Source of the DNA: a virus
Lineage: Duplodnaviria > Heunggongvirae > Uroviricota > Caudoviricetes
Virus record (IMG/VR): IMGVR_UViG_3300037454_000478
Span: 122,449-152,037 of that record
Strand: one strand, 5' to 3'
DNA length: 29,589 bases
Shown: positions 5,353 to 29,589 of the stretch, in pieces
How the letters are laid out: each line of letters starts with the position of its first letter
How positions within the stretch are numbered: position 1 is the first letter of the stretch
The notes under the pieces: generated by a model
Database searches by the model: none
What the model was told of the DNA's origin: nothing
Seen by the model: only the letters and a program-made list of their open reading frames with translations
Translations under genes and position numbers: made by a program

Positions 5353-5403
5353 AATTTCCCCATTTTCCGGTATGTTTTGATGCCAAATTTCCCCATTTTC
5401 CGG
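5353..5403. repeat. Two identical 18-bp direct repeats AATTTCCCCATTTTCCGG (5353-5370, 5386-5403)
   Basis: Exact repeat with a 33-bp period, starting immediately after the terL stop codon. Confidence 0.9.
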
Positions 5404-5536
5404 AATTTTTGAAATAACTCTCCAAAATTGGCCTTTTTTGGGGGTTTATTCCTTAAAATTTGGAAAAATAACCGGTTTATTCACCGTTTTTATACCTATT
5501 TTTCAAATAAGCTTTAAAGTCCCGGCTTAAATGGTT

Positions 5537-5569
5537 GTTAATTTTTTGCGATACTGGTTTATATATAGG
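5537..5569 (+). promoter_or_regulatory. Phage promoter class GTTAA-N17-TTATATA, copy 1
   Basis: GTTAA 5537-5541, 17-nt spacer, TTATATATAGG 5559-5569, then AAAGGAAAGGAG (5574-5585) and ATG 5592. Confidence 0.7.
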
Positions 5570-5591: not shown

Positions 5592-6053
5592 ATGAATCGT
5601 TACGTTTTCTACAATCCCAACCCCCTGCAGAAATATCATAAGGATGGCACCCCGATGCGATGGAAGTACTGTGACTGCACTATCCGTGCAATAAGTAAGG
5701 TCGAAAAATCCGATTGGGTGTCCGTGTACCGGATGCTGACCGAATATGGTCTCAATCACTACATGATGCCCAATGACCCGGAGTTGCTGATGAAAATATT
5801 CCCGGAGATGGGATATCTTCGCCATACGTATAAGAATACGGAGCGTATCACGCTTAAAAAGTTCGCTGAAACCCATAAGCAAGGTTCGTTCGTTGTCAAC
5901 ATGCCGGGACATGTCGTGGCCGTGGTGAATGGTAAGTACTATGACACGTTTGATTCCGGTGACTTCTACATTACTTCGTATTGGAAACAATATTGGGATA
6001 ATGAGGGGATGAACCCGGCACATATCAAACCCAGCATGTATGCCGGGAGTTAA
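5592..6053 (+). CDS. Putative papain-like (C39-like) cysteine peptidase-fold protein
   Basis: Start moved from the track TTG (5535) to ATG 5592 behind the SD-like motif. Motifs YNPNP, DCTIRAI (Cys), GHVVAV (His) and YYDTFDSG (Asp). Confidence 0.6.
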   Translation: MNRYVFYNPNPLQKYHKDGTPMRWKYCDCTIRAISKVEKSDWVSVYRMLTEYGLNHYMMPNDPELLMKIFPEMGYLRHTYKNTERITLKKFAETHKQGSFVVNMPGHVVAVVNGKYYDTFDSGDFYITSYWKQYWDNEGMNPAHIKPSMYAGS

Positions 6054-6100
6054 AAAATGTAATTTTCACCTATATTTCATTGTAATTAAACAATATCAAT

Positions 6101-9894: not shown

Positions 9895-9925
9895 GTTAAT
9901 ATAGTGCAATTTCCGTTTATATAGG
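9895..9925 (+). promoter_or_regulatory. Phage promoter class GTTAA-N17-TTATATA, copy 2
   Basis: GTTAA 9895-9899, 17-nt spacer, TTATATAGG 9917-9925, AAAGGAAAGGA 9932-9942, ATG 9950. Confidence 0.7.
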
Positions 9926-15109: not shown

Positions 15110-15541
15110 TCAAAATAACTGGAGGTCTTTTGTGAATTTGTCAATATCCTCACTCCAATAAGGCCCAATACCAATACAGGTGTTGGTTGGTACACCATGG
15201 AACTCCGTATTACCGGCGTCCGTGATTAAAACACATGGAATGTTGCTTTCACTGGTTATCCGGTTATACAAGGCAACCAATTCCTCATCATTTTCCACGC
15301 ACACACATATTTTCGTGAATATTCCGTTGAGCCATTTATCGAGTATTGAGTTTTCATCAAAACAAAACTGTATTAGATACTCTTTTCCAGTATCAATTGA
15401 TGTGGTTTCTTTTCTTGCAAATTTAAGAAGGGCGCCAACACTGGCATGGGCGACTTGGGCGGCAAGTTTTCCTTTACGTATGGAGTGCTCACCCTTGAGT
15501 AGATCCTTACGGAACACTATGACTTGTTTTACTTCAGCCAT
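15110..15541 (-). CDS. pth2: Peptidyl-tRNA hydrolase, Pth2 (archaeal/eukaryal type)
   Basis: KQVIVFRKDL...KGKLAAQVAHA, KICV, DAGNTEF...TCIGIGP and terminal LQLF. Confidence 0.93.
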   Translation of the reverse strand: MAEVKQVIVFRKDLLKGEHSIRKGKLAAQVAHASVGALLKFARKETTSIDTGKEYLIQFCFDENSILDKWLNGIFTKICVCVENDEELVALYNRITSESNIPCVLITDAGNTEFHGVPTNTCIGIGPYWSEDIDKFTKDLQLF

Positions 15542-15580
15542 TATGTAGAAATTTATTTATTCAATATACATTAAAATATA

Positions 15581-15672
15581 TGCGATTTAACAAGAGTTCT
15601 CCCGCGTCCTTTATAACTTTATAGGGGCACGGGAGAACTCTTGTTAAATCGCAAATAAACGCGGTTTATGCG
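15581..15672. repeat. Palindromic intergenic element, copy A (perfect 24-bp arms)
   Basis: Arms 15581-15604 and 15630-15653 are exact reverse complements around a 25-nt core; followed by AATAAACGCGGTTTATGCG. Confidence 0.9.
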
Positions 15673-15675
15673 AAT

Positions 15676-17625
15676 TTATTCTTCATCATCCTTCTTGGGT
15701 TTTTTCTTATTACCTTTATCGCCCTTTTTGGATGGTTTTTTCTTGCCTTTTTCCGGTTCGTCATTACCGTCCGATTTCTCGGATGAAGCGAAACCTTCGA
15801 CAACCGGTCGGTTATTCCTTTTATCTCTTAACTTCATCTGCTCCAATATCATGGATTTGACCTCTTCAAGCTCCTGCCTGATGGATTCAAATTCACCTCC
15901 ACTTTCATCATCGCTACCGGCAAGGTTAAGTTGCTCAATTTCCTCCTGCTTGTACTTTTCATTGAGCTTGATATCAGCATCCGACAAGTGTAAGTACTTC
16001 TGTACAAGGAATTTACTCGAGAAGTATTTGATTTCGTTACCCTCCTTGTCCATATCAATCATAGACTCCTTCATGTTTTGGATGAACTCAACGCGTTTAT
16101 CCATTAACTGAATCTGCATAAGTTCCTCGAAAAGGTTATATGATTTATATTGGACTTGGATACATGTTTGGAAATCCTTGACCGTTTGCATATCAGGGAT
16201 ATCCAAGCAGAGTTGTAACCACATTGGTTTAATGATGATTTGGGAGAATACATTACGTTGGCGGGCAACATAACGGCCAAAATCAATCTCCGAACGAAGG
16301 TAACTATCGGCATCCGTACCGAACCAGTTTTGGTCATTATCGTGGTCGAAACGATTTATAGGAATGTTGGAAACACCATATAGTTGATTCTTGAAGTATT
16401 TCAAGTAATCACTATCCATCAATTCCGGGCCATCTCCACCAAGGGTATCGATTTCCGGTGTACCGGCCTCGGATTCCGGCATCCAATACTCTTTGTTAAA
16501 TGGCATTTGCGCCTGTCCGTTGATGGTGAGCTCGCCAGTATCGGAGATAAATTTAATATCCTCACGATAACGATTCATGGCGGCGTTAAGGGTTTGGGAA
16601 CCACGGGCACGGTTCATACCTTTCACCGGAATAGTGAATTTCGTACGATATTGTGCGTTGGTAACCACCCAAATGATTTGTGCCTGCTCAATGATACGAT
16701 AAATATTATACGGGCGGACAAGACGTTCGAGATATGATAAACGCGAAATCGACTGTGTTTCTTGGAATTGGATATAAATGACCTGTGAATCAAGGAGTTT
16801 ACGTTCTTTACCATTGATACCGGCGAATTGAATCCAATACCATTTATCGTTTTCAAACTTCTTGGTAAGCGTAGCCGGATCGATAGGAACAAGACCAATG
16901 ATTTGGGTTGGCTTCTCCAACGAATCGTATACGATCTCAAACGCAATGATACCTTCAATCAACCAACGTTTGAAATCATCCCATGCCTTTGTACGCCATC
17001 CGAGCATACGATAGAAGCGTTTGAATGACTTGGTAATCGAATCATTGATTTTGTTTTGGATATCCTTGGAGAAATCAATCAAATCATTGTCATCAATATA
17101 CGGCTCCATGAAATACACATAGTTGGAATCGTATACGATGGATTCGTTTGTCATCTTATCAAGAATGTCCTCCAATTCCGGCTGCATGGCCAAGGCACGA
17201 AGTTGATCCCTCTTGGTGGTGAAATCCTTTTCAAAGAAATTACGATCCTTGTTGTCTTTCACCTTCCATGCGGAAAGAAGTTGATTGTATAGGGATGATG
17301 TGACTTCTTGCTTATCTTTCGGAAGAAGGTCTTTATCAGCCGGAAGGGCGCGCATGTTTTTAATCACCTGTTCATCCAACGACATACCCAAACGAGCCAT
17401 GTTCGAGAAGAATTTATTGATGGTTCGTTTGGATTTCTTCTCCTTCGCCGCAATTTCCGCCTGTGAGTATTTAGGTACATACCTCATCGTTTCCTTAAAA
17501 CCGGGAATGTTTGTGGTTTGACGATGATGGTCGGCTTCCGTCACATAGTCAAGAAGTCCCATATCATGGGCTTCATACAATGTTCTGAACCCAAATTCGG
17601 CGTCCTGTGATATATTGCTTTCCAT
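15676..17625 (-). CDS. gp20: Portal protein (T4 gp20-like)
   Basis: RPYNIYRIIEQAQIIWVVTNAQYRTKFTIPV, EYWMPESEAGTPEIDTLGG and YFKNQLYGVSNIPINR align with gp20 motifs; charged C-terminal tail. Confidence 0.9.
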   Translation of the reverse strand: MESNISQDAEFGFRTLYEAHDMGLLDYVTEADHHRQTTNIPGFKETMRYVPKYSQAEIAAKEKKSKRTINKFFSNMARLGMSLDEQVIKNMRALPADKDLLPKDKQEVTSSLYNQLLSAWKVKDNKDRNFFEKDFTTKRDQLRALAMQPELEDILDKMTNESIVYDSNYVYFMEPYIDDNDLIDFSKDIQNKINDSITKSFKRFYRMLGWRTKAWDDFKRWLIEGIIAFEIVYDSLEKPTQIIGLVPIDPATLTKKFENDKWYWIQFAGINGKERKLLDSQVIYIQFQETQSISRLSYLERLVRPYNIYRIIEQAQIIWVVTNAQYRTKFTIPVKGMNRARGSQTLNAAMNRYREDIKFISDTGELTINGQAQMPFNKEYWMPESEAGTPEIDTLGGDGPELMDSDYLKYFKNQLYGVSNIPINRFDHDNDQNWFGTDADSYLRSEIDFGRYVARQRNVFSQIIIKPMWLQLCLDIPDMQTVKDFQTCIQVQYKSYNLFEELMQIQLMDKRVEFIQNMKESMIDMDKEGNEIKYFSSKFLVQKYLHLSDADIKLNEKYKQEEIEQLNLAGSDDESGGEFESIRQELEEVKSMILEQMKLRDKRNNRPVVEGFASSEKSDGNDEPEKGKKKPSKKGDKGNKKKPKKDDEE

Positions 17626-17766
17626 GTAGATATATTTGCTTTATAATGATTCTTTATAATAATAAGGTTATTTAATCAGCTACTTTAGGGTTGGGTGAAA
17701 ATCAAATTAAAATACCTTAATGGAGTATATGAATGATGTATTTTTAATGCAAATAAATACATATTT

Positions 17767-18798
17767 ATGACTGATAAATACTCTAATGATTGCGCCATTT
17801 TAATCACTGGTGTTGCCGGATTGTTAGGATATAATTTTGCAAAGTGGCTTCTTGATAATACCATGCATCACGTTATTGGTATTGATGCCATGTATGATTG
17901 GGGCAACCACAACGAAGTACCTCATAATGAAAGGTACAAATTTTATCAATTGGATCTTACGAAACATTATGAGGAACTTGATGGGATTGTTAAGCAAAAT
18001 AACGTCAAAATCATATACCATTTTGCCAGCTACGCCGCCGAAGGTTTATCTCCTTTCATGCGTAGGTTTAATTACATGCAAAACACCATCGCATCAACCA
18101 ACGTAATCAATACCTCAATCAAATATGGTTGTAAACTTATATTCACCAGTTCCATGTCCGTATATGGGCATGGTAAATGCAAGGACTCCAAACTACTCTT
18201 TGATGAAAATGATAGGCCAGCACCTATTGACCCATACGGGATTGCAAAGTGGGGTATTGAGCAGGATATCCGGGTTGCCGGCGAGCAACATGGTTTGGAA
18301 TGGGCCATCATTCGCCCGCATAATGTATTTGGTATCGGACAAAACGTTAACGACCGATATCGTAATGTACTTGGTATTTGGATGCACCAAGCGGTGATCG
18401 GTAAACCTTTTACCATTTATGGTGATGGCGAACAGGAACGTGCATTTACCTATATAGATAACATCCTTGAACCACTGTATAAGGCGAAGGATCTTAAAAA
18501 TGAAGTGATCAACCTCGGTGGTATAAATGGTATTACGCTCAATGAAGCCTGTGAGGTAATGAAAAAAGTCACCGGAAAAACAGAAGTGGTTCACCTCGAA
18601 GCCCGGCATGAGGTTAAAAGAGCCATCCCGGATCCGGCCCGTTCCATCATACGTCTTAATTACAAGGATATTGTTGGGTTTGAAGAAGGCGTACGTAGAA
18701 TGTGGGAATGGGTGAATAATGAACATTGTGTTGCTGACTGGTATGAATGGGATGCTTTTGAATTGAATAAAGGGATCTATTCATACTGGAAGAAGTAA
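17767..18798 (+). CDS. NAD-dependent nucleotide-sugar epimerase/dehydratase (extended SDR)
   Basis: GxxGxxG (TGVAGLLG), SSMSVYG, YGIAK (YxxxK) and RPHNVFG. Confidence 0.92.
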   Translation: MTDKYSNDCAILITGVAGLLGYNFAKWLLDNTMHHVIGIDAMYDWGNHNEVPHNERYKFYQLDLTKHYEELDGIVKQNNVKIIYHFASYAAEGLSPFMRRFNYMQNTIASTNVINTSIKYGCKLIFTSSMSVYGHGKCKDSKLLFDENDRPAPIDPYGIAKWGIEQDIRVAGEQHGLEWAIIRPHNVFGIGQNVNDRYRNVLGIWMHQAVIGKPFTIYGDGEQERAFTYIDNILEPLYKAKDLKNEVINLGGINGITLNEACEVMKKVTGKTEVVHLEARHEVKRAIPDPARSIIRLNYKDIVGFEEGVRRMWEWVNNEHCVADWYEWDAFELNKGIYSYWKK

Positions 18799-18815
18799 CC
18801 TTCACATCAGCGCAT

Positions 18816-18852
18816 AAAAAAAAGGAACTCGCGAGAGTTCCTTTTCTTTTTG
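18816..18852. terminator. Bidirectional intrinsic terminator
   Basis: AAAAGGAACTC-GCGA-GAGTTCCTTTT with GNRA loop, between convergent genes. Confidence 0.85.
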
Positions 18853-18866
18853 TATGTGGCGTACAA

Positions 18867-19436
18867 TTAAGCGTCATCATCATCTGCCCAGTCGGAAGCG
18901 AACTTAACAGTGATATCGACAAGATCTTGAGCATTGTAATCAAGATCCTCAACACCGGCAATACCACCAACCATGATCATATCATGGAAGAGGATTTGAC
19001 GGTAAATATCACCGGCGCGGTTGGCGATCACGATCTTGAACCAATCTGCGCAATATTCTTCTTTAAGGGTTGTTTCGCCGGTTGCCTTGTTGTAACAAAG
19101 GTTGTTCCATGCACGGAAGATCTTATAGATGTAGTTGTCCGTACGCTTACGAAGGTTAAGCGAAATTGTAACCGTGATTTCATGGGCCGTATCATCGAGC
19201 TTGGATTGGAGATACGTACGGGTGGTACCCATGAACTTTTGTGTTGTCTTCTCAGGGCCTTTATCGAGAGTTCCAAGACCTTCCACCTTCTGCACCTGTT
19301 CCGTTAGAACTGCAACATCGCTGCCAAAACGTGCCATAAGTGCCTCCGGGATGGTGAAGTACATCTCGAACATATTTTTGTAGTTAGGATCCTGACGATT
19401 GTTTCCTGCCTGACTATTCTTAATGTGTGGAAGCAT
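18867..19436 (-). CDS. gp19: Tail tube protein (T4 gp19-like)
   Basis: 189 aa; N-x-FE-x-YF, Q-x-FMG-x-x-R-x-Y, WNNL and terminal F-x-x-DW, as in T4-like tube proteins. Confidence 0.75.
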   Translation of the reverse strand: MLPHIKNSQAGNNRQDPNYKNMFEMYFTIPEALMARFGSDVAVLTEQVQKVEGLGTLDKGPEKTTQKFMGTTRTYLQSKLDDTAHEITVTISLNLRKRTDNYIYKIFRAWNNLCYNKATGETTLKEEYCADWFKIVIANRAGDIYRQILFHDMIMVGGIAGVEDLDYNAQDLVDITVKFASDWADDDDA

Positions 19437-19496
19437 AATTCTATTTGTTTTTTCTTTAATAGTATAATAACTTACATTTTGTAACTTGTCAAATAA

Positions 19497-19955
19497 TTAC
19501 GCATTAATACCATCATCACATACTCCAACAACTCCGTATCGTATTGTTGACTCCGGTGTTACCACGGTAGATACCATTGGGATTTCAATGGCCTTTACCG
19601 GGGTATCATTGTCCTGTCTACGGGAAATTGCAATGGCAAATGCACCATTATGAGCGGTTGTGCAGTATTCGAGGTTATTATGCGACATTACCTCATTCCA
19701 ACTATGTGGTAAAACGGTATTTGGAGCGGTAGCAAGTCGACGATTGTATACAATTTGTTCCCACAAGGACTTGGTTAACTTGGTACCGGTAACAATATAT
19801 ACTCCATCATCCATCAATTGCATATGGGTATCGGTTAATGCGCCCCAATGCATGTTATACCAACGGGTAAGTGTATCGTTTGTACCGATATGTTGGTTTG
19901 TATTTTGGGAAGCAATCAAGGGATGCTCCTTCATTATATCCTGAAATGTTTTCAT
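19497..19955 (-). CDS. Hypothetical protein (weak CTS-like start)
   Basis: 152 aa, MKTFQDIMKE|H; tiles within the operon. Confidence 0.65.
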   Translation of the reverse strand: MKTFQDIMKEHPLIASQNTNQHIGTNDTLTRWYNMHWGALTDTHMQLMDDGVYIVTGTKLTKSLWEQIVYNRRLATAPNTVLPHSWNEVMSHNNLEYCTTAHNGAFAIAISRRQDNDTPVKAIEIPMVSTVVTPESTIRYGVVGVCDDGINA

Positions 19956-19988
19956 CAGTTTTTAAGTTTCTTTGTGGGATGGGATTGT

Positions 19989-20342
19989 TTAGGCGCCGAA
20001 ACTCTTGTTGAGGATACCAACGAGCTTACCCCATTCACCCTTTTCGACATCTTCTTTATTGTCGGAAAGAATGCCATCGAGGGTCTTGTTCATCTTGTCC
20101 TTGTCGAGCTTGTCACCAAAAACAACCTTGAACTTGTTTTCAGCGTAATCGCGGAAACTCTTCTCGTCCTTGATGGATTCACTGACCTTTTCCTGTTCCT
20201 CCTCTTCGGATTCACAGCCCATGCGGATGGCCTTCAAGCGTTCTTGTTCCTCTTCTTCGTTCTCCTTTTTGAAAGTGCCACAACCAGGGCATTCCTTACC
20301 TTCCATAAGGGATTCGCTTATAAATTCAACCAAACTTTTCAT
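19989..20342 (-). CDS. Acidic putative prohead core or internal protein
   Basis: MKSLVEFISE|S, Glu runs and further candidate [ILV]-x-E sites. Confidence 0.7.
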   Translation of the reverse strand: MKSLVEFISESLMEGKECPGCGTFKKENEEEEQERLKAIRMGCESEEEEQEKVSESIKDEKSFRDYAENKFKVVFGDKLDKDKMNKTLDGILSDNKEDVEKGEWGKLVGILNKSFGA

Positions 20343-20368
20343 ATTCTTATGATCTTTATTTCCTTTTA

Positions 20369-20755
20369 TTATGCGGACATATTGTCCAAAAGTTTCTTAA
20401 TTTCCGGTTTACCACCTTTCACACTATATATGGTGTTTGTGAGAAGATCAATGATCTCTTCCAAAACATCAATACGTTTGTTTTTAGGTAGGTCACCCCA
20501 GTAGAACGTAAATTTGACGCATTCTTCTCCGTCAACGTATTTGATTTCACATTTGACTTCGGTATCAAGTATCACACCACAATCGTTAAGATTTGCCGGG
20601 TACTTTTTATAGAATGCGTTGGCTATAGCCTTGTAATCATTCTTGGAGAGATCATCATTGGGAATCCAAGCACCATTATCGATGAAATCGATCGTGGTAC
20701 CCATTTGCCACTGGGTTTGCATGGCTTCCGAGATATATTCAGCTAATGATTTCAT
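20369..20755 (-). CDS. Putative internal head protein (CTS-like N-terminus)
   Basis: 128 aa, MKSLAEYISE|A; TAATG coupling with the upstream gene. Confidence 0.7.
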   Translation of the reverse strand: MKSLAEYISEAMQTQWQMGTTIDFIDNGAWIPNDDLSKNDYKAIANAFYKKYPANLNDCGVILDTEVKCEIKYVDGEECVKFTFYWGDLPKNKRIDVLEEIIDLLTNTIYSVKGGKPEIKKLLDNMSA

Positions 20756-21183
20756 TATTCACTTGTTTCTTTTTCTTTATAAATAATAACAGGTTTATTT
20801 TGCGATCGTTCAAGTGCATTTCGAAGGTTATCATTTTCGGATTGTAAGTTTCTATTTGAACGTTCGCAAGCGCGTAAACTGCCATTAAGTATCAAAATCG
20901 AATCATGTAACTCCTGATTGCTTTGTTGTAGAAAATCAATGGTTGTTGCAGAGTGTTTGTAAGTATGTAGATCTCCATTAAGTATCAGGATGGAATCATG
21001 CAATTCGTGATTGGATTGCACAAGAGAATCAATGACCTCCCGATTACCTTTTACCTCGAATAAATGATTTTGGTTGCGGGAGCACTTCGAACATGTTTGC
21101 ATACAGAACAAACATATAAATATGATGGCCACCCACCTCCATGTTTTCAACGGATTTTGTTTAAGTATGTTTAATAGTTTCAT
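20755..21183 (-). CDS. Membrane-anchored coiled-coil protein with an internal 31-aa-period duplication
   Basis: N-terminal TM segment WRWVAIIFICLFC; IDSLVQSNHELHDSILILNGDL and IDFLQQSNQELHDSILILNGSL repeats; ATGA overlap with the sigma gene stop. Confidence 0.75.
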   Translation of the reverse strand: MKLLNILKQNPLKTWRWVAIIFICLFCMQTCSKCSRNQNHLFEVKGNREVIDSLVQSNHELHDSILILNGDLHTYKHSATTIDFLQQSNQELHDSILILNGSLRACERSNRNLQSENDNLRNALERSQNKPVIIYKEKETSE

Positions 21184-22619
21184 TCCGCTACAATATTATG
21201 TGTTTTGAAGTTCTCGGAAAGCTCACTCATCATATTGATGAGGTCGATATCCGACTTGCGGCGGATACATTCCGTTGGATATACATTTTCAAGAAAATTC
21301 ACAACAAAGCCACGGTTGCCATCATAATGCTCATCAATATAGTTGATGTCATTTTCAAGGCAGCTGATAATGAAATCCTGCCCGGCTTCACTTAATGGTT
21401 GGATTGCACTACCCATGGCATTATTGAATACCTTACGGTTTGCCCAACGGGTACATTCCTGAAGCATGATAAATACGTTATCCGTAATCATGGCATCCAT
21501 GATTGTTTGTGCGGTATGGGTTGCAATAAGTGATTCGGAGTACATGGAAAGGAGATCCATGAGGAGATTAACAGTCCTCTTATCGGATTTGAGGAATGTA
21601 ATGATGTGTTTGATATACATGGAAACAGCCGCACCTGTGATACCCATTTCCTTGGCAATCTCAACACCGGACATTTGTTTATACCCACGGAGGCCAAAAT
21701 ATTTGTAGAACACACTTGCGGTACGAACGGAGAACTTATCATCAATAAGTTTATACACCTTATCCCATTGGGTTTTGGTGTCTCCTTTGAATGCATCATT
21801 ATCGCTTGATAGTGCAGTCATTCTATCGACCAACGTTTGGCCTTCATCATCCAGTGTTTGATCCACGGAGACCGTGTTGAAATTGCCTTTGGTATTACCT
21901 GCGGCCTTATTCTTTTCGTATTCATATTGGGAAATCCTAACGGTACGGGATAATTCATTAATATCGTTAAGGATTTGGAAGCGGATACGCCACCCAGCAT
22001 ATTGTTTGAACGTAAGGTTCTTTTGTTTCTTGACCTCTGCTTTTGCCTCCTTATCAAGTCCATCCTCCATGTCAACAAATTCATCCGGACGGTGATAATC
22101 ACTCATAGCTTTGGTGAGACCCAAATAACCGGCACTAATCAAACTATTCCAATCCAGTCCGGAACCACGATACTTGCTTGCAATTGCGGTTACAAGGCTG
22201 GCGTATTGACGGGCACAACGCTCACGTCCTTTTTCAGTTTCAAGGTCAAGTGTGATATCACCAATATCACGTTTGCCTGATATAACATTATTGAAATCCT
22301 CGGCGGTCATCAATTGGGGGAGACCCTTGATTTCAGGTTTGCATTTGCCGGCAAGTTTTCGGATTTCTTCATATATTGCCGGGGAGCCACCATACTGGGC
22401 GATTATCGCCTTAATCCTTGATGACGATCCATTGATGATTTCATCAAGTACCTCGCCACTTGTTATACCAAGCTGGATTGTATTAACGAGGATTTGGAGA
22501 TATTCTTTTGATATTGATTTGCTTCCACGAACTATCTTTTCAAATTCCTTGATCTGTTCGATGGTGAGCTTGTTCCACTCCCTACGGGACTCCGCAATTA
22601 TCTCGGTAAATAACTTCAT
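21180..22619 (-). CDS. Sigma70-family RNA polymerase sigma factor with N- and C-terminal extensions
   Basis: Region 2: YASLVTAIASKYRGSGLDWNSLISAGYLGLTKA...TFKQYAGWRIRFQI...SRTVRI. Region 3.2-like VSVDQTL. Region 4 HTH: YFGLRGYKQMSGVEIAKEMGITGAAVSMY. Confidence 0.88.
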   Translation of the reverse strand: MKLFTEIIAESRREWNKLTIEQIKEFEKIVRGSKSISKEYLQILVNTIQLGITSGEVLDEIINGSSSRIKAIIAQYGGSPAIYEEIRKLAGKCKPEIKGLPQLMTAEDFNNVISGKRDIGDITLDLETEKGRERCARQYASLVTAIASKYRGSGLDWNSLISAGYLGLTKAMSDYHRPDEFVDMEDGLDKEAKAEVKKQKNLTFKQYAGWRIRFQILNDINELSRTVRISQYEYEKNKAAGNTKGNFNTVSVDQTLDDEGQTLVDRMTALSSDNDAFKGDTKTQWDKVYKLIDDKFSVRTASVFYKYFGLRGYKQMSGVEIAKEMGITGAAVSMYIKHIITFLKSDKRTVNLLMDLLSMYSESLIATHTAQTIMDAMITDNVFIMLQECTRWANRKVFNNAMGSAIQPLSEAGQDFIISCLENDINYIDEHYDGNRGFVVNFLENVYPTECIRRKSDIDLINMMSELSENFKTHNIVAE

Positions 22620-22771
22620 AGTTACTTATTTGGTTTCTTTTATATTAGAACATACGTCTATACAATAATTATAATCATTTTATTTGAATAGTGTAAGGAT
22701 TTATCTGCAAAAACCCTAAAAGTCCTTTTACAAACGACTATTTTTTTCCCAAGTAAAATAATATATCGGTC

Positions 22772-23209
22772 ATGTTCGGTACAATACGTAACTATTTTGT
22801 GGTCAAACATCTGTTAAATAAGATTTATGACAACGAAAAGATCGAAGAGAATCTTTCGCGCACTTTTGGGGTTGAATGTAAACGCGATTGGGTAGGTCGT
22901 TTATATATGGTTGTCAATCCAATACTTCAAAATATTGAAGATGGAGGTAATACGATTGTCTATAACAAGGATGATAAGATGATGATTGAGATGTGGGTTA
23001 TGAAAAACCTTGAACTTATCAGGAATTTTGTTGTAAATAACTCCATGTTCGATCTGCTTACCTACTCCATTGAGCGGCTTGATGATGATGAAAATTACCT
23101 CATCGTGTTCAAAAACATTTATTTTGACGATATTATCAAAATCTGTAAGTGGTCTGCCGCTATAATTGCAGCCGGATTGCTCACAGGACTTGGTTTCTTA
23201 ATCTTTTAA
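22772..23209 (+). CDS. Hypothetical protein with C-terminal membrane anchor
   Basis: 145 aa ending WSAAIIAAGLLTGLGFLIF. Confidence 0.75.
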   Translation: MFGTIRNYFVVKHLLNKIYDNEKIEENLSRTFGVECKRDWVGRLYMVVNPILQNIEDGGNTIVYNKDDKMMIEMWVMKNLELIRNFVVNNSMFDLLTYSIERLDDDENYLIVFKNIYFDDIIKICKWSAAIIAAGLLTGLGFLIF

Positions 23210-23234
23210 TTGAATTAAATAAACATTTCGAGAT

Positions 23235-23885
23235 ATGTTACAACTTATTAATCGTGAAGATTACTCCGGTAGAGACCATAACGAGGTCATGGCTGAATTT
23301 CAAAAGATCGTTGACTCATACGGTGACGATATTAAGGATATGACCCTTGAACAATGTAGGGAGGAGGAAAAGCGCCTCATCGCCATCATGGATGAACATG
23401 ACAAAAACATGCTTGGTGTCGAATACGAACTTCCAAAGACCTGCAAGCTTATGGGATCCGCCAGCAGCATCACCCGTAAGGCCATCGGTGGTTATATTTG
23501 CGAACTCCTCGATAAGGTGGAATGCGAATATCAATACACCCTCGGATACTTCCAGCTCTATCAGTGGTGGAAAAACCCACAGGACAAGATTTCGTACAAT
23601 AACCTCAACAGCACGCTTCAGGTGCTCGGCAACAACATGCGTTTCCGTGGTTCACATCAGTGGCAGATGATTCTTTCCATCAACGAGTACTTCAAGCCTC
23701 TCCACAACGCATACATTATCGACAATATGCTCACTCATCTTTACGGCGCCTGCCACAGCAAACTCCTCGACAAGATGAAGATCGATAACCCGATTGCCCC
23801 GGATAACACTCCGGCCCCGGAAGCCCCAGCCCCGGAAGCCCCATCGTTTGAGGAAAGCCAAGGTGAAGCCGCCCAAGAACAATAA
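23235..23885 (+). CDS. Hypothetical protein with Pro/Ala/Glu-rich tail
   Basis: 216 aa; 15-nt tandem duplication GCCCCGGAAGCCCCA at 23814-23843 (APEAP x2). Confidence 0.8.
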   Translation: MLQLINREDYSGRDHNEVMAEFQKIVDSYGDDIKDMTLEQCREEEKRLIAIMDEHDKNMLGVEYELPKTCKLMGSASSITRKAIGGYICELLDKVECEYQYTLGYFQLYQWWKNPQDKISYNNLNSTLQVLGNNMRFRGSHQWQMILSINEYFKPLHNAYIIDNMLTHLYGACHSKLLDKMKIDNPIAPDNTPAPEAPAPEAPSFEESQGEAAQEQ

Positions 23886-23905
23886 GGCATGAAACCTTTT
23901 CGCAT

Positions 23906-23934
23906 AAAAAGGCTCACGAAAGTGGGCCTTTTTT
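23906..23934 (+). terminator. Intrinsic terminator fused to the downstream promoter
   Basis: AAAAGGCTCAC-GAAA-GTGGGCCTTTT with GNRA loop; the T-tract runs into GTTAA. Confidence 0.85.
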
Positions 23935-23967
23935 GTTAAGTATGGAGGTGTTCAGATTATATATAGG
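23935..23967 (+). promoter_or_regulatory. Phage promoter class GTTAA-N17-TTATATA, copy 3
   Basis: GTTAA 23935-23939, 17-nt spacer, TTATATATAGG 23957-23967. Confidence 0.7.
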
Positions 23968-24003
23968 TGCAAACACGAAATAACAACCTTAAAAACAACA
24001 AAC

Positions 24004-24411
24004 ATGGAAAAAAACATCAACACCGCCGCCGAAAAGGCCACCAAGAAGAACATCGCTGACATGAACCTCGTGGAACTCCGTAAGGAACGCCATCACATCG
24101 CCGCCAAGATCTCAAGCAAAAAGAAGGCTGGCAAGGACGTCACCGAGCTCAAGGCACAAGAAAAGACCATCGTTACCATGATCGCCAACATGGTTGCCGC
24201 CGAAAAGGCCACCAAGAAGGCCGGGAAGCCGGCGGTTCAAGCGAAACCGGTAGCCGAGAAGGTCGATCCGGCCCCCGAGTGCGATGAGAAGGAAAGGATT
24301 ATCAATGCGTTGAAGGCCAATAATGGCAATCGCAAAGAAGCCGCCAAGGCCCTGGGCTTCAGCGAACGCACCTTGTATCGTAGGATCAGCCAATACGGCA
24401 TCACCTTATAA
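24004..24411 (+). CDS. Lys/Ala-rich protein with C-terminal Fis-type HTH (HTH_8)
   Basis: ERIINALKANNGNRKEAAKALGFSERTLYRRISQYGI matches NtrC/Fis HTH; identical 24-nt repeat (AAEKATKK) at 24025-24048 and 24196-24219. Confidence 0.85.
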   Translation: MEKNINTAAEKATKKNIADMNLVELRKERHHIAAKISSKKKAGKDVTELKAQEKTIVTMIANMVAAEKATKKAGKPAVQAKPVAEKVDPAPECDEKERIINALKANNGNRKEAAKALGFSERTLYRRISQYGITL

Positions 24412-24433
24412 GGATAGCCCTGCCGAAAAAATT

Positions 24434-24455
24434 AGCCCGCTTGCGGGCTTTTTTT
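24434..24455 (+). terminator. Intrinsic terminator fused to the downstream promoter
   Basis: AGCCCG-CTTG-CGGGCT plus a T run that runs into GTTAA. Confidence 0.8.
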
Positions 24456-24488
24456 GTTAATATCCCGGGTGTTCCGTTTATATATACC
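24456..24488 (+). promoter_or_regulatory. Phage promoter class GTTAA-N17-TTATATA, copy 4
   Basis: GTTAA 24456-24460, 17-nt spacer, TTATATATACC 24478-24488, AAAGGAAAGGAG 24494-24505, ATG 24512. Confidence 0.7.
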
Positions 24489-24511
24489 TGTAAAAAGGAA
24501 AGGAGAACATC

Positions 24512-24985
24512 ATGAAATTACACGAATTACCTCAAGAGATTCAGGATAAACTGAATGCTGACCGCGATGGCTGGAAGGGCCACGTTGCAAGTGGTGCATA
24601 CGGAGTCACTGCCTACAATAAACTTGGCACTCGTTACTTCATGGCAACCCGCAGATGCGTTTCTTGGTACGACCTCAAGGGTCACTCGATGCCGTTTGGC
24701 GGCGGTACCTATTGGGAGGTTCGTTACGGTGAAATGAAGTGGAGCCACAACGTCCGTAGAAACCCGCTGGGCGAACGTTACGATGAATACAGCTGGGTTC
24801 ACAGCACCACCTACCGCAGTGTAACCAATCCGGAAACCGGCGAAGTTGTTGAAATACCAGGCAGGCTCGATACCAAAAAAGAGGTCATGGCCCTGCTGAA
24901 AAAACTCGAGTTCAAGGGATTCGATGAGTTGTCCAAGGAACAGTTCTTCAGCCCCAAGGCGATTGAGATTTACCCGGCCGAGTAA
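24512..24985 (+). CDS. Hypothetical protein (likely early)
   Basis: 157 aa with promoter and SD-like motif; GC-richer codons. Confidence 0.75.
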   Translation: MKLHELPQEIQDKLNADRDGWKGHVASGAYGVTAYNKLGTRYFMATRRCVSWYDLKGHSMPFGGGTYWEVRYGEMKWSHNVRRNPLGERYDEYSWVHSTTYRSVTNPETGEVVEIPGRLDTKKEVMALLKKLEFKGFDELSKEQFFSPKAIEIYPAE

Positions 24986-25000
24986 AAACACTCAAAAATC

Positions 25001-25090
25001 GCATATAAAAGGAGATCTCCTCCGTCCCGAATAACTATATAGGGGCAGAGGAGATCTCTTGTTATATCGCAAATAAACGCGCTTTATGCG
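25001..25090. repeat. Palindromic intergenic element, copy B
   Basis: Perfect 11-bp arms 25012-25022 and 25048-25058 with imperfect outer arms. Core is 21/25 and right flank 38/43 identical to copy A (hand alignment). Confidence 0.88.
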
Positions 25091-25096
25091 GATTTT

Positions 25097-25726
25097 TTAA
25101 TCTATGACCCGAATGTAAACGTTTTCCTGATCCTCAATATACGGATTTTCCTCATTGATTGTGATCCGGGTAACCGTGTGTTTCTTTTGGAACCATCTTA
25201 TGAAGAAACATTTTGAAGGTGGATCAATGGTCTCCCGTTTGGCGGTAACAAATACATCCTTTTGGGATCTCATTGTGGCATCCACACATACCTCATTAGG
25301 ATATCTCATTTCCACACAGGTTGTCCGCCATTCATCCGACACACAGGTATCGAATGCAAAATCCGGCTCGCAAAAGATTGTGTCATGAATTGGGATCGGG
25401 ATGGTATCATGTACATGGAATTGGGATGCCATGGAAATCATCGTTTGTAATTCCTTGTTTTTGATATTGAGTTTCTCCTGTTGTTCCAATAAATGTTGAA
25501 TGGTGGAATCCGATGTATGCTGAAGAACATCCATGGATAGTTGTAATTCGATAATCTCATTATCCCGGTCATCAAGAAGTGCCTTAATGTTGGCGGTGGC
25601 CACGGCATGTTCCTCCTTGAGGGATTTATTGACATTATACTGGATAATACATGTTGTACCAAGTGCAAGTATGAGACCGATCACCACATACATTACGATT
25701 TGTTTGATTTTACTCGTGATAATCAT
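25097..25726 (-). CDS. Membrane-anchored coiled-coil protein, DUF6549-like (putative spanin or lysis accessory)
   Basis: N-terminal TM segment, coiled coil, HDTI repeats, and C-terminal K-x-FFIRW-x-x-KK...ENPY, as I recall from Bacteroidota prophage lysis-module proteins. Confidence 0.55.
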   Translation of the reverse strand: MIITSKIKQIVMYVVIGLILALGTTCIIQYNVNKSLKEEHAVATANIKALLDDRDNEIIELQLSMDVLQHTSDSTIQHLLEQQEKLNIKNKELQTMISMASQFHVHDTIPIPIHDTIFCEPDFAFDTCVSDEWRTTCVEMRYPNEVCVDATMRSQKDVFVTAKRETIDPPSKCFFIRWFQKKHTVTRITINEENPYIEDQENVYIRVID

Positions 25727-28726: not shown

Positions 28727-29589
28727 TTATTGATCATCCCCTGCAGCTGTGCTCCAACTCGGCGTATATTCATTCCAGTGATCAGTACTAAGTATACTCG
28801 TCAGGTATGCATCTATCATTGTTTTTGGTAAGGCCACTATCAATTGACCGGTTTCAGAAGTTACAACCGGGAATCCATACCATTGACTTAATACCTTCTC
28901 CAATTGATCAGGTAAGTAGATTTTTAGAGGGCTCGGGGCATGATGGTTAGTAAGATTACCAAGAATGGCATGTGTGGTGTCAAGTCTTATTGTTGGTTTC
29001 ACCGTACCGGCTACAGTGTCTACAGACGAATCTGCCCAACCCTGATTAGCAACAATACCAATACCTCCACCGCTTCCGGCAGGGCCTTGAGCACCTTGGA
29101 TACCTGTAACGGTAAGCCAGTAATTTGTACCACTTTGGCTCCAACCAGCTTCACCAATTTTACCTGCAAGAGATACACCAACTGTACCCATACCACCCTG
29201 AGCACCTTGGAGGCCTTGTGTACCTTGAATACCTTGAGCACCTTGAGCACCTTGTGTGCCTTGTGTACCAACAGTACCACGTTTACCAGTTGTACCCTTT
29301 GTACCGGCGGTACCTCTATTACCAACATCACCCTCGTTCTTGGAATCACCTTGGTCACCCATTGCACCTTGTGAACCGGTGTCACCAATACCACCTTGTA
29401 AGCCTTGGGCACCTTGAGCACCTTGGGTACCAACCTTACCAGTACCGCCCTGTGTACCAAGAGTACCGATCTTACCGGAAGTACCTTGGGCACCTTTATT
29501 ACCGGTTGTACCTGTCGTACCTTTGGTACCATTAGTTATCTTACCGGAGGTACCTGCACCACCTTGAGCACCGGTATCACCGATACCAC
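28727..29589 (-). CDS. Collagen-like (Gly-X-Y) fibre protein, 5' end outside the window
   Basis: The frame of track ORF 28727..29362 stays open to 29587 (GIGDTGAQGGAGTSGK...); Gly-X-Y repeats are followed by a ~150 aa non-collagen C-terminal domain. Confidence 0.88.
   Translation of the reverse strand, partial: GIGDTGAQGGAGTSGKITNGTKGTTGTTGNKGAQGTSGKIGTLGTQGGTGKVGTQGAQGAQGLQGGIGDTGSQGAMGDQGDSKNEGDVGNRGTAGTKGTTGKRGTVGTQGTQGAQGAQGIQGTQGLQGAQGGMGTVGVSLAGKIGEAGWSQSGTNYWLTVTGIQGAQGPAGSGGGIGIVANQGWADSSVDTVAGTVKPTIRLDTTHAILGNLTNHHAPSPLKIYLPDQLEKVLSQWYGFPVVTSETGQLIVALPKTMIDAYLTSILSTDHWNEYTPSWSTAAGDDQ
29177..29587 (-). repeat. Gly-X-Y collagen repeat region (GTQ/GAQ/GTT-rich)
   Basis: GGT-NNN-NNN periodicity, seen as recurring ACCTTG on the plus strand. 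Confidence 0.9.

Follow-up and report, generated by a model that had tools for sequence, protein, structure and literature searches.

Bacterial REP and BIME elements are short dispersed imperfect palindromes found at the 3' ends of genes, where they stabilise messages or terminate transcription and show compensatory changes. The inverted repeats of plastid 3' untranslated regions (3'-UTRs) form stem-loops that serve RNA 3'-end formation and stability, and their loops invert between relatives through recombination between the arms. Among T4-type phages the described systems are the PeSL and PmSL cassettes (Arbiol et al. 2010, PMC2839356; Comeau et al. 2014, PMC4122927). PeSL have short stems (for example A3-4G3-loop-C3T3-4), are placed upstream of sigma70-like early promoters and occur in same-direction runs of small open reading frames (ORFs) (PMC2839356; PMC4122927). 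Here we describe a family of much longer hairpins whose host genome is that of one large rumen phage with T4-type structural genes. Two copies, A and B, lie in the stretch of DNA analysed here (the window), which is the last 29.6 kb (29,589 nucleotides, positions 122,449 to 152,037) of the 152,037-bp viral record IMGVR_UViG_3300037454_000478; the completeness of this record is estimated at 68%. The hairpins are confined to gaps after stop codons, their pairing is maintained by covariation, and the reading that we favour, with confidence a little above even, is that they are structured two-way terminators or 3'-end hairpins.

The likeness between copies A and B, which are 82-84% identical over ~96 nt when taken with their flanks (to 15675 and 25093), is far beyond chance. 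Searches of the record with an nhmmer profile built from the first copies found nine copies (A to I), and two covariance models, one of them R2, recovered the same nine and no more. The seven copies beyond A and B lie at 20.5, 41.7, 52.7, 72.4, 92.7, 103.4 and 116.9 kb of the genome. Relatives were gathered via the portal protein. Three of them carry the element: G001 (portal identity 79%) has 8 copies, G002 (71%) has 6 and G003 (67%) has 5. None was found in the seven more distant records G004-G010 (52-65%), which were also searched, and blastn of the GenBank phage collection with the portal region gave no match. A further record, G011 (IMGVR_UViG_3300037454_000475, loci L173-L178, a 105-kb fragment), came from an exact search of viral contigs with a 16-mer from the tip, and contains six copies. 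The family thus stands at 34 copies over five records (9 here, 6 in G011 and 19 in G001-G003), and 21 of the 24 pairs of its main helix show double changes; the first-pass annotation, made on copies A and B alone, had named an absence of further copies and of covariation as what would count against its proposal of a dispersed element.

That annotation had described a long paired hairpin at each site, and folding of both strands and the perfect arms of copy A bear this out. Copy A consists of the outer arms, a one-base bulge, a short C/G stem and an AT-rich apex, and folds at -56.2 kcal/mol on the plus strand and -53.6 on the minus strand (both z ~ -11.4 relative to shuffled sequence). Copy B has the same architecture and folds at -43.8 and -42.0 kcal/mol on the plus and minus strands (z -7.4 and -5.4). 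Both are, as had been remarked, far longer than the ordinary GC-rich terminators of this genome, which have stems of 8-13 bp. The four differences between A and B that were said to be mirrored in the opposite arm are indeed so: one lies in GAGTTC/GAACTC versus GAGATC/GATCTC, two in CCCG/CGGG versus CCTC/GAGG, and the fourth in ATTTAAC/GTTAAAT versus ATATAA/TTATAT. Two more arm differences are unmirrored, and one of these yields a G.U pair. The right flank conserved in A and B reads ATCGCAAATAAACGCG(G/C)TTTATGCG, followed by a T-rich run up to a minus-strand stop codon; in the minimum-energy fold of copy B this T-run pairs with the A-run at 24993-24999. The distance to the stop codon, put earlier at about 6 nt, is 4-7 nt (portal TAA 15676-15678; 209-amino-acid ORF TAA 25097-25099).

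The flank contains a second, smaller hairpin (CGCAAATAAA-CGCGG-TTTATGCG). Its existence had been noted correctly, together with the suggestion that it competes with the main stem. On this basis the element could be a regulatory switch (attenuator) in which forming the small flank hairpin would preclude pairing at the base of the big stem, and vice versa; in copies A, B and C the small hairpin and the right arm do have CGC in common. The overlap is, however, only 3-4 nt, and the minimum-energy folds, that of copy A included, contain both hairpins, which lends competition no support. Nor is the small hairpin conserved: only A, B and C carry it, D, E, F, H, I and all relatives lacking it or having a different one, and the consensus fold retains only a 3-bp stem. 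We therefore consider a switch extremely improbable. In a goat-gut strain (X7), copy A differs by two single-nucleotide polymorphisms, at 15661 and 15663, both in the loop of the small hairpin, and by none in the big hairpin.

The family as a whole was examined in an alignment (A3) of 23 hairpins, each oriented by its tip. In the 24-pair main helix 81% of cells are paired. None of 500 shuffles reached as high a covariation score, and sliding the partners by 1-3 columns reduced pairing to 41-48%. The outer stem, TATAA(A/C)A.../...T(G/T)TTATA, is fairly constant, and a GATC in each arm is nearly invariant, with a spacing of 39 nt between the two in most copies. The stretch of 7-9 bp that separates GATC from the tip, on the other hand, differs in almost every copy and is fully compensated. 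At the tip a core, ATAACTA, is kept, usually between a C-run and a G-run, and its AACT columns are invariant or nearly so across the 23 copies. The tip is asymmetric, and relative to the flank it faces one way in six copies (A, B, C, G, H, I) and is reversed in D, E and F; by analogy with plastid 3' hairpins, recombination between the arms would flip it. Folding does not single out one strand: the two are about equal, and among the same-direction copies the sense strand is the more stable in 6 of 11, not a significant bias. The tip is not a recognisable promoter, since it differs from both promoter-like motifs of this phage (GTTAAN-N17-TATATA and TTATTATA). The word GATC is not avoided by the genome, which has 673 such sites.

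All 34 copies fill gaps that follow stop codons. Of these gaps 21 are convergent, 13 lie between genes of the same direction and none is divergent. In the record, 5 of 13 predicted convergent junctions carry an element, versus 4 of 184 others (Fisher p = 6e-5); the junction at copy A is a same-direction one, with the portal and PTH2 genes both on the minus strand. The remaining real convergent junctions of the record have ordinary GC-rich hairpins between A- and T-runs, that is, two-way terminators, and no other hairpin stands beside the element at junctions B, C, H and I. (The simple terminator scan cannot score loops longer than 8 nt.) The long hairpins are likewise flanked by such runs: there is an A-run to the left (CAAAAATCGC), and a T-run directly after the hairpin on the strand that leads away from the flank, such as GCGATTTTTG on the minus strand of copy B. 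Outside the window, at genome 33214-33257, a DUF2786 gene leads into a convergent junction with an ordinary terminator followed by a lone TATAGTTAT, which may be the remnant of a replaced element; the homologue of that gene in G002 ends directly at a long hairpin.

Two copies also coincide with a promoter-like sequence. A regex scan of the genome for GTTAAN-N16-18-TAT(A/C/T)T(A/T) gave 36 matches, 35 of them on the plus strand and most 48-71 nt upstream of an ATG. The sole minus-strand match is at copy A, 50 nt upstream of the PTH2 start codon (15541), and its GTTAAA -35 box lies inside the base of the left arm of the hairpin. The first-pass annotation had overlooked this box. Copy F has the same arrangement (GTTAAA-N17-TATATT) before a small ORF, so that in both copies the site is 50-54 nt from the ATG; the other seven copies of the record lack the match. 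In A and F the module would thus end one unit and bear the putative promoter of the next, and it is because a terminator-like stem and the promoter of the following gene occur together that these two copies follow the logic of a PeSL cassette. In A, B and C the right flank has the sequence GTTA(A/T)A-N17-TTATGC (GTTAAA in A), a promoter with a spoiled -10, and is probably a decayed or silenced promoter twin rather than an independent signal.

The phage-specific promoter class itself, GTTAAN-N17-T(T)TATATA, occurs in the window at 5537-5565, 6049-6076, 9895-9923, 23935-23963 and 24456-24484 and about 30 further times in the genome, often trailed by AAAGGAAAGGAG. At g32585, g38493 and g62536 a terminator-like hairpin stands between -35 and -10, with the -35 box in the hairpin loop. 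A sigma-like protein of the phage is encoded at window 21180-22619. A search of the 152-kb record for a T7-type RNA polymerase found none, with an uninformative control.

Gene-by-gene comparison places copies H, F, G, C, D and B at junctions syntenic with those of G001 copies, and copy A roughly so. The sequences do not follow the sites: between the record and G001 the mean similarity of syntenic pairs is 0.65 and that of non-syntenic pairs 0.66, whereas similarity within each genome is 0.70 and 0.77, reaching 0.91 for B and C and 0.92-0.96 among three G001 copies. For 16 of 17 copies the best match lies in their own genome. Because the sites are syntenic and yet the copies resemble those of their own genome more, the family evolves in concert, with exchange among copies homogenising the sequences at sites that are themselves old.

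Fixed sites with exchanged sequences argue against transposition, and thus against the earlier suggestion of a non-autonomous mobile repeat (MITE- or REP-like) that spread into intergenic gaps. Near-identical copies between unrelated genes are what such a repeat would produce, as seen for B and the G011 copy at 67680 (97.8% over 89 nt) and for B and C (91%), and the G001 copy at 90145 has no counterpart in the record. However, the six syntenic junctions (with A roughly a seventh) and the genome-specific divergence fit gene conversion at fixed sites; no direct repeats or target duplications flank the elements; the arms covary instead of keeping a sequence that a transposase could bind; and in the 152-kb record, 68% complete by estimate, no Y1 (RAYT/IS200) transposase (PF01797) was found, although control genomes gave matches. 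The sole presence/absence site, G001 90145 versus window 5353-5534, has unrelated sequence and is not a clean empty site. We regard a mobile repeat as very unlikely. The gap at 5353-5534, which follows a 665-amino-acid gene, contains two direct copies of AATTTCCCCATTTTCCGG, and a word similar to AATTTCCCCATTTTCCGG follows the syntenic G001 gap in which the long hairpin sits instead.

The two-way terminator reading is favoured because of the position at gene ends, the flanking A- and T-runs, folding on both strands and the complementary distribution of ordinary terminators. The first-pass annotation had set it aside in favour of other roles, among them the switch and the mobile repeat disfavoured above and the RNA processing site and cruciform protein site considered below; position and the A- and T-runs now bring it back. 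In this model, a hairpin of ~25 bp between an A-run and a T-run would close transcription units. RNA from either strand would fold, so that transcription would probably be stopped or strongly attenuated in both directions, leaving a stable 3' hairpin on the message. Selection would maintain the pairing, the length of the stem, one GATC per arm and the tip core, while the inner stem would be free to vary as long as it stays paired. The copies hold fixed genomic sites and exchange sequence with each other. Where the next gene runs in the same direction, as at A and F, the base of the downstream arm would double as the GTTAAA -35 box of the phage promoter class.

Several observations weigh against this model. 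On the strand opposite to that of the adjacent T-run, 22-25 nt, with the small hairpin among them, separate the big hairpin from its T-run, a non-canonical layout for intrinsic termination. Junction D has an ordinary terminator directly beside the element, which is possibly redundant there. Behind copies E and G, whose neighbouring genes run in the same direction, no promoter is recognisable, and because of this read-through would be needed if the following genes are expressed. Finally, a 25-bp stem, a conserved 7-nt tip core and invariant GATCs at fixed spacing go beyond the needs of a plain terminator, and point to something more than termination. The two-way terminator is the best reading of the family but does not suffice to account for all of its features.

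One function that could account for the long stem is that of an RNA processing or stability signal, in which the duplex is cut by a host enzyme of the RNase III type, or is bound by a factor that recognises the tip and measures the distance from there to the GAUC duplex; cleavage or binding would then determine where the flanking messages end and how long they last. RNase III needs roughly 20 bp of duplex, and the ~25-bp stems exceed this. The covariation-conserved pairing, the constant distance from tip to GATC and the location of E and G inside apparent operons, where read-through is required, all fit. Searches of the 152-kb record for RNase III and for double-stranded-RNA-binding domains found neither, however, and the enzyme would have to be the host's. 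It is also hard to fit a loop read in one RNA with a tip that has no fixed orientation relative to transcription (4 versus 3 independent cases among the same-direction copies). We rate a processing signal as unlikely.

Alternatively, the palindrome could be read at the DNA level, as duplex or cruciform, by a protein of phage or host in nicking, clamp loading, recombination, replication or DNA organisation. The resemblance to a hairpin terminator would then be secondary, as with paired Neisseria DNA uptake sequences. Such a site would explain why the tip core is kept in either orientation and why wobble pairs reveal no functional strand (G.T 37 versus A.C 45). It would suit invariant GATCs at fixed spacing, copies ~10-20 kb apart along the genome and an element at junction D, where an ordinary terminator is already present. 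Against it, the hypervariable arms next to the tip offer little for a sequence-specific duplex binder to hold, and strict confinement to 3' ends, never in divergent gaps, is the behaviour of an RNA-level element. Presence/absence profiling for a reader gene returned a few unannotated proteins and one DUF2786 protein, none of them convincing. On balance a DNA-level site is likewise unlikely.

The features that go beyond termination may nevertheless belong together. We put forward tentatively, as possible but well short of probable, a two-part module in which the tip (ATAACTA between C-run and G-run) and the GATC duplex at a fixed distance are read strand-independently by a phage or host factor. 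The putative factor, for example a structure-and-sequence-specific nuclease, a nickase or a binding protein, would either flag on the DNA where blocks of genes end or process the transcripts of both converging genes. A dedicated reader of the tip would make this a new signal-and-factor pair, and the two-part module, if true, would be a novel type of punctuation signal for the genomes of large phages.

The sequencing runs that contain the phage are bovine and goat gut metagenomes and metatranscriptomes, available as contigs, which do not display transcript ends. In the one RNA run with good cover (X4) no contig crosses 15661-15663, where DNA contigs do cross, although nothing can be concluded from one run. 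Contigs of both kinds break in the tip of copy B (25028-25043); the repeat causes this during assembly, and the loose contig ends there derive from paralogous copies.

The second element-bearing fragment, G011, shares the promoter class and near-identical hairpins with the record, and only seven weak protein matches. Its genes match the complete 240-kb relative G005 mostly in regions that the record's own matches leave uncovered. G011 co-occurs with the record in the same sequencing runs, where the flanks of its elements appear as loose ends. Because of these complementary regions and loose-end flanks we think that G011 is probably the missing part of a genome of the record's kind, and horizontal transfer of the 98%-identical element between the two is disfavoured by the same complementarity. 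If G011 is that other part, a full genome of this kind would probably hold ~15 copies.

Coordinates of the two copies and their neighbouring genes are collected in the table below. The portal label given to the gene beside copy A in the first-pass annotation is correct, whereas the "DUF6549-like" label for the gene beside copy B finds no support: the 209-amino-acid protein has no Pfam match at E <= 0.01 and no PHROG match at E <= 0.001.

Features of hairpin copies A and B and of the adjoining genes (window positions)
Feature	Position	Strand	Details
Copy A, main hairpin	15581..15653	both	73 nt; perfect 24-bp outer arms 15581-15604 / 15630-15653; R2 match 77 bits
Copy A, tip	15605..15629	+	Short C/G stem closing AT-rich apical loop; family core here TATAACTTTATA
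Copy A, flank	15650..15675	+	Small hairpin CGCAAATAAA / TTTATGCG, then AATTT, into portal stop codon
Copy A, promoter-like site	15563..15591	-	GTTAAA 15591-15586, 17-nt spacer, TATATT 15568-15563
Copy B, main hairpin	~25001..25070	both	GATC at 25014-25017 and 25053-25056; R2 match 76 bits
Copy B, tip	25024..25047	+	TCCC-GAATAACTATATA-GGGG
Copy B, flank	25068..25099	+	Small hairpin, then GATTTTTTA; overlaps stop codon of minus-strand 209-aa gene
PTH2 peptidyl-tRNA hydrolase gene	15110..15541	-	PF01981, E 1.6e-28; downstream of copy A, on the strand of the portal gene
Portal gene (T4 gp20 type)	15676..17625	-	PF07230, E 8e-74; phrog_213; stop codon abuts copy A
157-aa gene	24512..24985	+	Ends 8 nt before copy B A-run; GTTAAT-N17-TATATA promoter at 24456 and GGAG ribosome site
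209-aa gene	25097..25726	-	With the 157-aa plus-strand gene makes the copy B junction convergent

Other features of the window and genome were recorded alongside. The second motif, TTATTATA(T/A)A, recurs before minus-strand genes that are structural and probably late, among them the portal gene (17626-17766, in the form CCTTATTATTATAAAG), and is reminiscent of the T4 late promoter TATAAATA. A long run of 9-nt periodic repeats on the minus strand at 28727-29587 encodes a Gly-X-Y collagen-like protein and runs off the end of the record. Two 80-nt direct repeats (20862-20941 and 20955-21034; 73% identical, 93 nt apart) lie inside a 142-amino-acid minus-strand ORF (20755-21183), and are an internal duplication in a small protein. 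CTAG is absent from the 152 kb, where 63.5 occurrences are expected from neighbouring trimers; G001 has 4 versus 87 expected, and there CATG is also avoided (0.38 of expected). This pattern looks like escape from host restriction.

Large rumen phages are almost entirely uncharacterised, their transcription punctuation included. For this clade the family is useful as a marker in annotating transcription units. It is also a natural experiment in the evolution of RNA and DNA structure, in which sites are kept, stems are rewritten with compensation and copies are homogenised while tip and GATC remain constant. Rfam gave no match to the window at gathering thresholds, and in E-value mode only generic long-hairpin (miRNA precursor) models, far below threshold.

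Three classes of repeat can be set apart from the family. It resembles REP and BIME elements as a set of short dispersed imperfect palindromes at the 3' ends of convergent or same-direction genes, with compensatory changes. It differs from them in having neither a GTAG-type 5' motif nor, in the 152-kb record, a RAYT gene (PF01797), and in belonging to a phage genome, with ~15 copies whose positions are conserved between relatives. A MITE is disfavoured by the lack of flanking direct repeats, by the syntenic positions and by the lack of precise excision at the presence/absence site. The integron attC pattern of R''/R' cores at the base of the stem, RYYYAAC...GTTRRRY, is matched, as ATTTAAC...GTTAAAT, in A and F only, B, C, D, H and I having TATAAA/TTATAT; the copies are 9-21 kb apart and form no cassette array (no search for an integrase was made).

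The nearest known systems are PeSL cassettes, two-way terminators, REP elements and plastid 3' repeats. Plastid 3'-UTR repeats are likewise stem-loops at the 3' ends of genes, but their sequences are unrelated and their loops are not a conserved family motif; the Rfam model of the plastid psbJ 3'-UTR matched below threshold (29.9 bits versus a threshold of 61.7 bits). Bidirectional intrinsic terminators share with the element the hairpin between A-run and T-run at convergent ends, folding on both strands and the type of site. The stem of the element is 2-3 times longer, however, its apical region spans 13-25 nt versus 3-8, and it has a one-sided flank of 22-25 nt, a conserved tip and GATC. PeSL cassettes have in common with the family that similar intergenic modules are dispersed through the genome, with, as in A and F, a terminator-like stem-loop and a phage promoter just downstream, and that the repeated copies are a substrate for inter-copy recombination, seen here as concerted evolution. 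In contrast to PeSL, the stems measure ~25 bp and have a conserved tip and GATC, the -35 box is part of the stem itself, and most copies stand at convergent junctions without a promoter, so that only A and F answer to the definition of PeSL. PeSL also cluster in hyperplastic regions and beside indels between close relatives; here all seven comparable junctions of the elements are synteny breaks, yet at this divergence 90 of the 111 other junctions are as well (81%), so that no significant excess of rearrangements beside the elements could be shown (p = 0.24). The family thus shares traits at the level of function with PeSL, two-way terminators, REP elements and plastid repeats while differing in defining features from REP, MITE and attC. 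If the tip has no reader, it would be a distant, structurally distinct counterpart of the T4-type terminator-promoter cassettes that are thought to drive module shuffling.

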